The translations under genes and the position numbers were made by a program. Below, one piece after another: positions 487 through 1,386 of a DNA stretch of 55,119 nt; position 1 is the stretch's first letter; the number at the start of each line of letters is the position of its first letter. The stretch covers positions 1-55,119 of IMG/VR virus record IMGVR_UViG_3300045922_000467. One strand, given 5' to 3'. A model generated the notes under the pieces. That model saw nothing but the letters and a program-made list of their open reading frames with translations. It was not told the origin of the DNA and searched no databases. This stretch comes from a virus. Its lineage: Duplodnaviria; Caudoviricetes.

Positions 487-607
487 CCGGCGTCCCGGTG
501 AGAAACAGCGCCCCTCAAGGGGGCTTGCCGGCGGCCGTCGCTGCCGACGCCCCCTTTGAACCAGAGCGCCGGCTGGCGGGCAAATGTCCAATGATTTCAA
601 TGACTTA
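487..607 (-). promoter_or_regulatory. Conserved promoter/leader element, copy 1 (IHF-like site, 23-bp box, three hairpins)
   Basis: Shares GCAAATGTCCAATGATTTCAATG (580-602), GCCGTCGCTGC and CCGGCGTCCCGG with 1261-1386. Confidence 0.65.
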
Positions 608-685
608 ACCGCTTTCGCGCGCCCTCGCGCGCCGAGGCCCGACCAATGACCCCCCGAAACTAGAGGGGAGCGAAGCGACCCGCGA

Positions 686-727
686 CCGCGCCCGCGCCCG
701 CGCCCGCGCCCGCGCCCGCGCCCGCGC
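686..727. repeat. Microsatellite (CCGCGC)7
   Basis: Seven perfect hexamer units read directly. Confidence 0.95.
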
Positions 728-737
728 CACCCGCGCG

Positions 738-771
738 AAAGAGGCCCGCCCCGGATCTCTCCAGGGCGGGC
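738..771 (-). terminator. Terminator-like hairpin with GAGA loop after ORF 778-987
   Basis: Minus strand GCCCGCCCTGGA-GAGA-TCCGGGGCGGGC-CTCTTT; near-identical to 54696-54727. Confidence 0.7.
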
Positions 772-777
772 GGTCAG

Positions 778-987
778 TCAGATGATGTGGACCTGGGTTC
801 GTCCGTCCGGCATCCACCAGACCATCGTTCGGGCCGCTGTGCGGCCGAAGTCGCCGCGGTGGCAGATGGTGGTTCGGCGGTGTCCCTCCACGTTGATGTG
901 TACGGCACCGGTGATGGTGGCTGGGTCGATGGTCCGGCCGGCCTGGGCCAGGACTTCGAGCGCCTCAGTTAGCTGCTTGGCAAACAT
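778..987 (-). CDS. Hypothetical early protein, 69 aa (MFAKQLTEAL...)
   Basis: GGAGG RBS upstream of ATG 987; 3' part of ORF-track 778-1362. Confidence 0.7.
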   Translation of the reverse strand: MFAKQLTEALEVLAQAGRTIDPATITGAVHINVEGHRRTTICHRGDFGRTAARTMVWWMPDGRTQVHII

Positions 988-1036
988 ACTATGTCCTCCG
1001 GTTGGGGAGGGGCCGGCGGGATGCCGGCCCCTCAGG

Positions 1037-1246
1037 TCACTCGCCGTACAGGGCGATCTCAGCTGCGATCTGACGATCGATCTCAGCCCACCTCCGCTCG
1101 GCCGCAGCCCGCTTCTGGGCGTATTCACGAGCGACCTTGTCGCATCTGGCCTGCTCTTCGCGGAGAGCCTTACGGCCCTCCACCTTGAGTTCGACCCGAA
1201 CCTCGCGACCCTTGCGGTCGCGGACGTATTTAACAAAGCGCTGCAT
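1037..1246 (-). CDS. Hypothetical early protein, 69 aa, charged and helical
   Basis: AAGGA RBS; directly follows leader copy 2. Confidence 0.7.
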   Translation of the reverse strand: MQRFVKYVRDRKGREVRVELKVEGRKALREEQARCDKVAREYAQKRAAAERRWAEIDRQIAAEIALYGE

Positions 1247-1260
1247 GTTACAGTCCTTGT

Positions 1261-1386
1261 CCGGCGTCCCGGGGAGGGTGGCGGCGCCCGGATGGGCTGT
1301 CCCGCACCAGCTGCCGTCGCTGCTGGCCTCATCAATCGGCCACAGCCTCGCGTAACGCGCAAATGTCCAATGATTTCAATGGGTTA
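1261..1386 (-). promoter_or_regulatory. Conserved promoter/leader element, copy 2
   Basis: Same motifs as 487-607, with identical 46-nt spacing between the loop motif and the 23-bp box. Confidence 0.65.

Follow-up and report, generated by a model that had tools for sequence, protein, structure and literature searches.

The early region of an uncultured tailed phage (Duplodnaviria; Caudoviricetes), analysed here over the whole 55,119 bp of IMG/VR record IMGVR_UViG_3300045922_000467 (the window), carries two direct-repeat modules on the minus strand, A (668-426) and B (1458-1244), of about 215-240 nt each. Common to both are a 23-mer without any mismatch, a succession of four hairpins (H0 to H3) and a ribosome site, and the modules stand in tandem on the same strand, module A starting 780 nt after module B. 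The leader of about 100 nt behind the 23-mer is probably a functional structured RNA, and the 23-mer itself is likely to act as double-stranded DNA, as a site of the IHF type. With neither a known family nor a homologue, the module is so far a candidate control element represented by two copies.

Two modules with a common layout

In the alignment of both modules, shared islands extend from CCTCTAG..CGGGGGGTCATT, with which the repeat starts at about 668 (A) and 1458 (B), via the 23-mer and the hairpins to CAAGG. A mechanical repeat search recovered a direct repeat of 85 nt with 72% identity (family D9). The 23-mer (CATTGAAATCATTGGACATTTGC) is present exactly at 580-602(-) and 1359-1381(-), which is the sole pair in 55,119 bp; further sites with ≤3 mismatches were not found there, and none were expected from 100 shuffles. 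The strings CAGCGACGGC (534-543(-) and 1313-1322(-)) and CCGGGACGCCGGA (486-498(-) and 1260-1272(-)) also occur at two sites only. Since the alignment is free of gaps from the 23-mer to H1, the loop of H1 lies at the identical distance in both copies.

The first-pass annotation, made from the sequence alone, had described an identical 23-mer followed by three hairpins, a ribosome site and a gene. This order was recovered in exactly two copies, with the loop of H1 on a different stem at the same distance, H2 as GCCC..GGGC followed by GCYG, H3 as CCGG-GACG-CCGG, and a ribosome site and gene behind the hairpins of both modules. The element is larger than had been described, however, as the repeat also includes an upstream box and a fourth hairpin, H0, and the layout is not fully common to both copies, as copy A has an extra hairpin of about 40 nt between H3 and the ribosome site. 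In module B, 2 nt separate H3 from the ribosome site AAGGA (1258-1254), and the AUG is located at 1246-1244. The distance from H3 to the AUG is variable, with 58 nt in A as compared with 14 nt in B, which speaks against an operator of translation alone.

The 23-mer lies 41-52 bp downstream of the upstream box, termed G6TCAT box. In module B this box opens a G6/C6 hairpin (GGGGGG..TCCATGT..CCCCCC, 1444-1413), and the same box and hairpin precede the early promoter in L016 and L008, two of the 80 related loci (L003-L082) with which the window was compared. Four sites of the box CGGGGGGTCAT were found, all on the minus strand (646-656, 1434-1444, 54505-54515 and 54574-54584). A longer box, TATACGTCGGGGGGTCATGGCTCGC, is 100% identical in the relatives L003, L005, L007, L008, L016, L027 and L028, where it borders an AT-rich region.

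Conserved fold of the leader

H1 is the best-supported hairpin. RNAfold gave it an equal shape in both copies, consisting of a 6-bp stem, a 1x1 internal loop and GC-GACG-GC, and its loop AGCGACGGC is invariant between the copies. The GACG tetraloop is common to H1 and H3. In copy A, H1 can be extended by GGGGGC/GCCCCC, in competition with H2.

For a test of the fold, the approximately 100 nt after the 23-mer were aligned and the RNAalifold energy was compared with that of alignments whose columns had been shuffled within conservation classes. The sense strand reached -31.15 kcal/mol versus -16.3 ± 3.3 kcal/mol (z = -4.46; 0/300 shuffles as low), and the antisense strand of the same stretch z = -2.38 (5/300 shuffles as low). 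Between the G6 box and the 23-mer no conserved fold was detected (z = -0.6 in sense, 84/300; z = +1.9 in antisense). Divided into parts, the leader gave z = -4.46 for H1 (0/500) and z = -2.9 both for H0 (6/500) and for H2 together with H3 (6/500). All 20 pairs of the consensus structure hold in both copies (40/40 cells); in the control, in which the 3' partners were slid by 1-3 columns, pairing was found in 21-50% of the cells.

Between the copies, three pairs have changed on both sides and five on one side. Five pair changes create G.U pairs, which correspond to A.C mismatches on the opposite strand, so that the fold is sense-specific. Moreover, around an invariant centre the arms of H0 and H1 differ and yet stay complementary; a double-stranded DNA operator would show the reverse pattern. 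An RNA in the sense of the genes is favoured by the energy of the fold, by the difference between the strands and by the sharp limit of the fold at the 23-mer; covariation alone does not establish an RNA structure. The structured RNA that had been proposed at first is supported for the stretch behind the 23-mer (z = -4.46 in sense), but neither for the 23-mer nor for the region upstream of it.

The 23-mer as a DNA site

In the accessible text of two sources, the IHF consensus is given as WATCAANNNNTTR with a flanking A-tract (PMC10380432, PMC9452768). Both copies of the site fit this consensus at 12 of 13 positions, the plus strand reading TTTCAA-TGAC-TTA in one and TTTCAA-TGGG-TTA in the other; the reverse complement of TTAA-NN plus the 23-mer contains T-TTCAA-NNNN-TTA in both. 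The relatives L016 and L082 possess TTGATTTCATTGGAC in their AT-rich regulatory region, L016 with a second, inverted copy about 200 nt away.

The pattern ATTGAWWTCATTGGAC was scanned in IMG/VR and in metagenome contigs, which yielded at least 232 usable instances. At least 38 of the 232 matches listed (32 of them unique) have flanks in common that were no part of the pattern, namely T-S-Y-A-A-S-Y-Y before and TTTTT after it. Read on the other strand, this extended signature consists, among the matches listed, of an A-tract, a spacer and WATCAANNNNTTR, and 24 of the 32 unique members show a perfect ATCAA with the T-tract on the correct side. The motif was located near DnaA boxes (L250, L115) and directly upstream of consensus TTGACA-N17-TATAAT promoters (L277, L278, L312). 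The contigs with the motif are unrelated to the phage, except for L242, which is the contig of L016, and two loci with terminase similarity. In GTDB genomes, a longer pattern gave 56 matches against a chance estimate of about 9. Pseudomonadota account for about 36 of the 56 matches, a pyrimidine precedes the motif in 44, and several matches adjoin the ends of tRNA genes.

Head-to-head inverted pairs of YAASYYATTGAWWTCATTGGAC-T5 were observed in unrelated AT-rich phage contigs (L129, L244, L251, L225, L309), and the same motif adjoins tRNA gene ends in bacterial genomes (L357, L363, L372), where it may represent arms of att sites. For the modules themselves, an interpretation as attP was rejected, because a search of the phage proteins revealed neither an integrase nor a resolvase.

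The 23-mer appears not to be part of a novel RNA and to belong to a widespread IHF-consensus DNA motif, which occurs in phages of no close relationship and in genomes that are mostly proteobacterial. A DNA site for a host factor, generic in kind, can now be separated from a lineage-specific RNA candidate. As the perfect identity over 23 bp exceeds the need of IHF, the 23-mer may overlap another signal, perhaps a -35 element (TTGGAC or TGGACA); in module B it contains the hexamers TTGAAA and TTGGAC. A blastn search with the 41-nt site against GenBank phages gave non-significant matches only (E ≥ 0.6), several of which, to be taken as a lead only, are located between genes in phages that infect Alpha- and Betaproteobacteria. 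A literature search for 13-mers of the motif returned unrelated primer lists only.

Searches for further copies

The exact 23-mer had no match in IMG/VR. A pattern of the H1 loop and H3 matched twice in IMG/VR, in both cases in coding DNA of unrelated high-GC contigs, and these matches were rejected as due to chance. A covariance model of the two copies (R1), as had been suggested by the first-pass annotation, detected no third copy in the window, where the next-best match (18.9 bits) lies inside a gene, and nothing in the 80 related loci. In a blastn comparison of both record ends with these loci only the G6-box region was aligned, and positions 1-2100 had no match among GenBank phages. Rfam likewise offered no known RNA family: in the whole window the tRNA alone reached the threshold, and the five matches to 380-1520 at E ≤ 10 (12.7-23.5 bits versus thresholds of 35-80) belong to unrelated eukaryotic or archaeal families. 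For the gene behind module A, here called geneX, one homologue was found (P0002, 62% identity), and scans of IMG/VR and the GTDB genomes with a geneX alignment gave nothing.

Promoters and the boxA leaders of relatives

In the relatives, the minus-strand arm after terS consists of a G6/C6 hairpin, a promoter with the conserved sequence ACTTGACA-N17-GAGTCTGAA, a covarying 5' hairpin, an exact boxA of the rrn type (GCTCTTTAACAA) and a gene of the geneX family. Informative in this respect are 61 loci whose sequence covers 1,500 nt or more upstream of TerL. The boxA was present with ≤1 mismatch in 33 of them, 955-2,110 nt from TerL; a few of the others have looser variants, and the rest have none. 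In some relatives (e.g. L016:1640-1465 minus; L039:8760-8677), boxA is flanked by the covarying arms GACCGG/CCGGTC or GACCTA/TAGGTC. A very large group of uncultured phages, with at least 595 IMG/VR contigs related to the record (TerL identity up to 82%), is thereby seen to open its early arm with a canonical boxA leader.

Module B occupies the place of the relatives' promoter and boxA leader. A weak resemblance to boxA is found in copy A, where GCGCTCTGG shares only CGCTCT with it; in copy B, GGCTGT is found. Between the phage tRNA-Ser and module B, GTTTCTTTGAAAATCA is located at 1680-1665(-); we take it to resemble the boxA variants of other phyla, and it could be a real boxA if the host is neither a beta- nor a gammaproteobacterium.

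The sole strong host promoter of the regulatory region, TTGACA-18-TACAAT, is located at 53813-53784(-). It has a TG before the -10 hexamer, is followed by a palindromic GTATAC operator pair (53678-53813(-)) and heads the arm of replication genes. The promoter-like site ahead of the tRNA is too unlike the relatives' promoter to be scored. A sigma-54 promoter was also considered for the modules and fails, by eye, in copy B, and a search of the record revealed no phage sigma factor. One candidate promoter combines TTGGAC or TGGACA in the 23-mer with the island GCTNTGG 15-17 bp downstream; in copy A its -10 hexamer is without the usual A at the second position. If this promoter is real, H0 would be untranscribed and H1 would be the 5' hairpin, as the leaders of the relatives begin.

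Genome arrangement and genes behind the modules

The features of the two modules and their cassettes are listed in Table 1. The record is complete (CheckV completeness 100%) and is classed as linear. In L016 and L008, the small genes, a terminator, the G6 box, the AT-rich region and the next genes follow each other in unbroken order, and the same gene order is split in the record between 1-2060 and 53700-55119. The record thus appears to be a linearised circular permutation, both ends being neighbours in the genome. Because the order is uninterrupted in these two relatives, the early genes are not terminal, contrary to what had been claimed at first; their terminal position is an artefact of the assembly. 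The break falls within a poly-G/C terminator. The phage sequence is present in sequencing runs from hot springs and microbial mats, whose assembly contigs break at a poly-G run and at a microsatellite; RNA runs with phage sequence were not found among the listed runs. For the tRNA-Ser region (1704-1835), a second contig variant with 7 differences and a 1-nt insertion occurs in the same runs, so that two strains coexist.

The gene of the large terminase is located at 3173-4552(+), and the closest cultured relative by this protein is Pseudomonas phage Rollin (45% identity). On the plus strand it is followed by genes for a portal or adaptor protein, major head protein, internal virion protein, transglycosylase and tail fibres, and by an open reading frame (ORF) for 2,608 amino acids; DNA polymerase, helicase, primase-helicase, an HNH protein and an AAA ATPase are encoded on the minus strand. 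The large ORF (26383-34209(+)) contains repeats of the PAPAPA type and 12-nt repeats (SDA type) and adjoins the internal-virion-protein genes. The C-terminus alone of its product matches an unannotated PHROG of 3,431 positions, and comparison with PDB sequences and Pfam gave no informative match and no polymerase signal. A search in six frames for a T7-type RNA polymerase (PF00940) remained without match, which carries little weight, as the control genomes were silent, too.

Table 1. Features of modules A and B, of the genes behind them and of the terminators (coordinates of the window).
Feature	Position	Strand	Basis
Upstream box of module B, CCTCTAG then CGGGGGGTCAT (G6TCAT box, 1444-1434)	1434..1458	-	alignment; relatives
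Putative IHF-type site of module B, TTAA-NN + exact 23-mer (1381-1359)	1359..1387	-	motif comparison
H0 of module B, GUUAC..GUGGC; 3' arm within conserved island GCTNTGG	1339..1356	-	
H1 of module B, GCCAGC-A-GC-GACG-GC-A-GCUGGU	1306..1327	-	RNAfold
H2 of module B, GCCC-AUCC-GGGC, then C-rich linker without U-tract	1286..1297	-	
H3 of module B, CCGG-GACG-CCGG	1261..1272	-	
Gene, 69-aa basic Arg-rich orphan protein, behind module B	1037..1246	-	ORF
Gene, 68-aa orphan protein; preceded by 11-bp GC hairpin (about 1000-1033), followed by terminator	778..984	-	
12-bp GC hairpin + CUCUUUC tail, probable terminator ending cassette B	744..770	-	-29.6 kcal/mol, z = -4.6
Upstream box of module A, CCCCTCTAG then CGGGGGGTCAT (656-646)	646..668	-	alignment
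Putative IHF-type site of module A, TTAA-NN + exact 23-mer (602-580)	580..608	-	motif comparison
H0 of module A, GCCAG..CUGGU; includes island GCGCTCTGG	560..577	-	
H1 of module A, GUCGGC-A-GC-GACG-GC-C-GCCGGC	527..548	-	RNAfold
H2 of module A, GCCCC-CUUGA-GGGGC, then GCUGUUUCUC	510..524	-	terminator scan; -13.3 kcal/mol
H3 of module A, CCGG-GACG-CCGG	487..498	-	
Hairpin of about 40 nt specific to copy A (about 480-443), then ribosome site AAAGGUAGG (442-434), AUG 428-426	434..480	-	
Gene, 128-aa protein geneX	42..428	-	ORF
10-bp G/C hairpin + AAUUUU, record end	1..30	-	terminator scan
Second terminator of tandem pair, 8-bp GC stem then GCCACUUUUU	55097..55116	-	
12-bp terminator with U6 tail, behind 110-aa gene	54701..54728	-	

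For the products of the cassettes, PHROG and Pfam gave no match (69-aa, 68-aa and geneX proteins), nor was a homologue of the 69-aa protein found. The AlphaFold model of geneX (pLDDT 74.5) had no fold match in the PDB at E ≤ 0.001. The geneX family provides the first early gene of the related phages, often as two paralogues (L016:1168-1464; L008:7029-7391 and 8462-8809). If the record ends are joined, the hairpins at 1-30 and 55097-55116 would be tandem terminators behind geneX. The stem at 54701-54728 is nearly the same as that at 744-770, with which 54702-54728 forms the inverted pair I18.

Directly after the terminator at 744-770 follows a (CGCGGG)n microsatellite (680-746; repeat families D2, D3, D7), and a second microsatellite (54615-54683) directly follows the near-identical terminator. 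Read on the minus strand, they consist of (CGCGGG)n and (CAGGGCG)n, with G3 runs 3-4 nt apart in a pattern of the G-quadruplex type. The succession of box, microsatellite and terminator recurs at 54,448-54,728, there without the hairpins. For one system of processive antitermination, terminators with very long stems are reported to resist its action (PMC10325885), which is mentioned here as a parallel only.

Proposed function and alternative explanations

We propose that each module would control one small early-gene cassette and would do so in two layers. At the level of DNA, the 23-mer with its TTAA flank would bind a host architectural protein of the IHF type, at a site adjoining a non-consensus promoter that may be weak or factor-dependent. 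At the level of RNA, the approximately 100 nt after the 23-mer would be transcribed as a 5' leader and fold into H0-H3. The GACG loops of H1 and H3, placed on stems that are free to vary, would be the recognition sites of one trans-acting factor of phage or host. This factor would act on elongation, so that the modified polymerase passes the long-stem terminators of the cassettes and H2 of leader A. Such an element would be nut-like in its logic and would stand in for the relatives' boxA leader at the same early arm. Observed directly are the repeat and its extent, the strand-specific conserved fold, the spread of the 23-mer motif, boxA in the relatives and its absence here, and the terminators; from there we infer IHF binding, transcription of the leader, the existence of the factor and antitermination. 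The mechanism as a whole, including the control of read-through, is therefore put forward as a tentative proposal. A more far-reaching version, in which the hot-spring lineage has replaced an ancestral boxA/Nus leader by a new class of processive-antitermination RNA in the form of tandem elements of about 100 nt, seems improbable; here, the two GACG-loop hairpins would load a factor, or the RNA itself, onto the host RNA polymerase and enable it to pass the terminators with unusually long stems between the early cassettes.

Several observations weigh against the proposed mechanism. Only two leader sequences are available, and since no third copy was found, the covariation rests on these two; owing to this small number, the shuffle control reaches the observed covariation in 78 of 500 trials, so that it is not significant on its own. 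The selection on structure that had been claimed at first is supported by stems that change and still pair and by invariant loops, but the evidence from covariation is thin. H3 and the top of H1 are invariant between the copies and, as neither ever varies, uninformative on pairing. H2 resembles a terminator in copy A only, where its 5' arm can instead pair with the G-run before H1. Hairpins with a GACG loop are not enriched across the genome (18 versus 13.7 ± 3.1), so that no wider regulon is indicated, and neither an N-like nor another RNA-binding protein was identified. With regard to the DNA site, the 23-mer misses one position of the IHF consensus, with TTTCAA in place of ATCAA, and the W positions of the GTDB matches are without the preference of the consensus (TT 19, AA 18, TA 11, AT 8). 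A scan of 1-2200 for sigma-70-type consensus promoters gave no site, and near the modules no promoter of the relatives' type (TTGACR-N17-AGTCT) was found. A matrix built from 19 promoters of the relatives, which is too sharp to decide, scores the modules about 2 SD (standard deviations) above the genome mean and below the top 0.1%. Because no promoter was found, the leader may be made solely by transcripts that read through from the promoter of the tRNA, or may not be made. Finally, boxA GCTCTTTAACAA was not detected with ≤3 mismatches on the minus strand of 2100-1 and 55119-53700.

The same evidence for structure would also fit a leader RNA which is real and acts after transcription, either by protection of the 5' end from RNases or through GACG loops that bind a translational repressor, possibly a cassette product, and so coordinate the cassettes. 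It is in accordance with such a role that H3 of copy B ends so close to the ribosome site, and that the relatives' leaders also open with a strongly covarying 5' hairpin, a common layout of stabilisers. In copy A, however, H3 lies 58 nt from the AUG with the extra hairpin in between, so that one operator geometry cannot serve both genes; mere stabilisation needs no invariant loops, and an RNA-binding protein was not found. We therefore consider a purely post-transcriptional role rather unlikely. A similarly limited likelihood is assigned to the explanation that the modules have no RNA function and represent control regions of DNA that were duplicated, or remains of duplication and gene conversion. 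In that case the conserved islands (G6TCAT box, 23-mer, GCAGCGACGGC and CCGGGACGCCGG) would be DNA sites bound by proteins, and inverted repeats rich in GC would give rise to the hairpins incidentally. The 23-mer and the G6TCAT box, both found in other genomes, are clearly motifs at the level of DNA, the GACG cores are similar to the -35 hexamers (TTGACG) in the promoters of the relatives, and the recurrence of the cassette layout without hairpins at 54,448-54,728 points in the same direction, as do the non-significant covariation and an antisense strand that also folds better than the shuffles (z = -2.38). This is opposed by the arms of H0 and H1, which differ and remain complementary around an invariant centre, where dimeric DNA-binding proteins give the opposite, by the five changes that create G.U pairs and by a conserved folding that stops exactly at the 23-mer.

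That the hairpins act as single-stranded DNA, be it as an N4-type promoter for a virion RNA polymerase or as a priming signal, is very improbable. The phage is podovirus-like, its 2,608-aa gene stands beside the internal-virion-protein genes, and the hairpins occur in just two copies near the start of the early arm; but the large protein gave no polymerase signal in Pfam or among PDB sequences and PF00940 was silent in six frames (as in the controls), the loops comprise 4 nt on composite stems, a consensus host promoter is present in the phage at 53813-53784, and the position at the genome end is an artefact. Hardly any likelihood at all is left for the explanation that the islands are a small protein-coding gene on either strand. 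On the plus strand, a reading as ..PAAVAA-x12-KCPMISM(T/G)-stop is possible in both copies (ORFs 459-608 and 782-1387), and a minus-strand ORF of 39 aa (481-600) starts in the 23-mer of copy A. Against coding speak the 12 unrelated residues between the plus-strand islands, the 5-nt indel after H1, which shifts the frame, and a 23-mer without any synonymous change; on the minus strand, the frame from the 23-mer meets a stop in B and the H1 island lies in different frames.

Comparison with known systems

To our knowledge, only few RNA signals for processive antitermination are known (nut, put, boxA, EAR, and leaders recruiting LoaP or RfaH). The first-pass annotation had suggested a nut- or put-like role. 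This suggestion receives indirect support from the boxA of the relatives (33/61) and from the long-stem terminators, whereas the defining features of nut (boxA and the pentaloop of boxB) and of put (two long stems in about 70 nt) are missing. As with the lambdoid nut sites, there are two copies per genome, early in early units and ahead of terminators and of a gene for a small basic protein; short hairpins carry a conserved loop on a free stem, which is the logic of boxB recognition, and the relatives have a true boxA at the equivalent place. For a nut-type position, terminators are present downstream of the modules, and promoter scans upstream remained without match. A boxB is a single hairpin with a 5-bp stem and a GNRA-like pentaloop. 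Compared with boxB as generally known, the modules have GACG tetraloops and a composite H1, in which a 1x1 internal loop separates 6 bp from 2 bp, and they have four hairpins in place of one. Furthermore, no boxA of the GCUCUUUA type was found near the hairpins at ≤3 mismatches, no homologue of N was found, and the copies are arranged in tandem on the same strand. N proteins are short and diverge fast, so that absence of the N family cannot be shown.

With IHF sites, as far as the accessible texts describe them, the 23-mer shares 12 of 13 consensus positions and a motif family found near DnaA boxes, promoters and tRNA-linked sites; it departs from them in the one missed position and in an identity over 23 bp beyond their need. 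The promoters of N4 have stems of 5-7 bp and loops of 3 nt. Unlike these hairpin promoters as generally known, the modules have loops of 4 nt, and the phage gave no polymerase signal in a search whose control was silent.

HK022 put is described as an RNA of about 70 nt that forms a triplex and two stem-loops, both long and bulged; it binds the zinc-binding domain of beta' and needs no protein (PMC9378689). Like putL and putR as described there, the modules are paired cis elements with shared sequence and preserved stems that would act on far-downstream terminators, and the placement of put downstream of early promoters is also the one proposed for the modules (PMC9378689). Unlike the put described in that text (PMC9378689), they form four short hairpins within about 100 nt, with stems of 5, 8, 3-5 and 4 bp, and have pyrimidine-rich linkers. 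A boxA is located behind the early host promoters of phage T7 (PMC3709561). With the boxA leaders of T7 and of the relatives L003-L082, the modules have in common a place at the start of an early arm transcribed by the host, behind a 5' hairpin and ahead of small early genes separated by GC hairpins. They differ from the rrn and T7 boxA leaders in that they lack the 12-mer by which these are defined. Judged by the defining features that were tested, the element apparently belongs to none of the three families nut, put and boxA, and a phage that combines the lack of boxA with a terminator-studded early arm and a duplicated structured leader would be a natural place for another signal.

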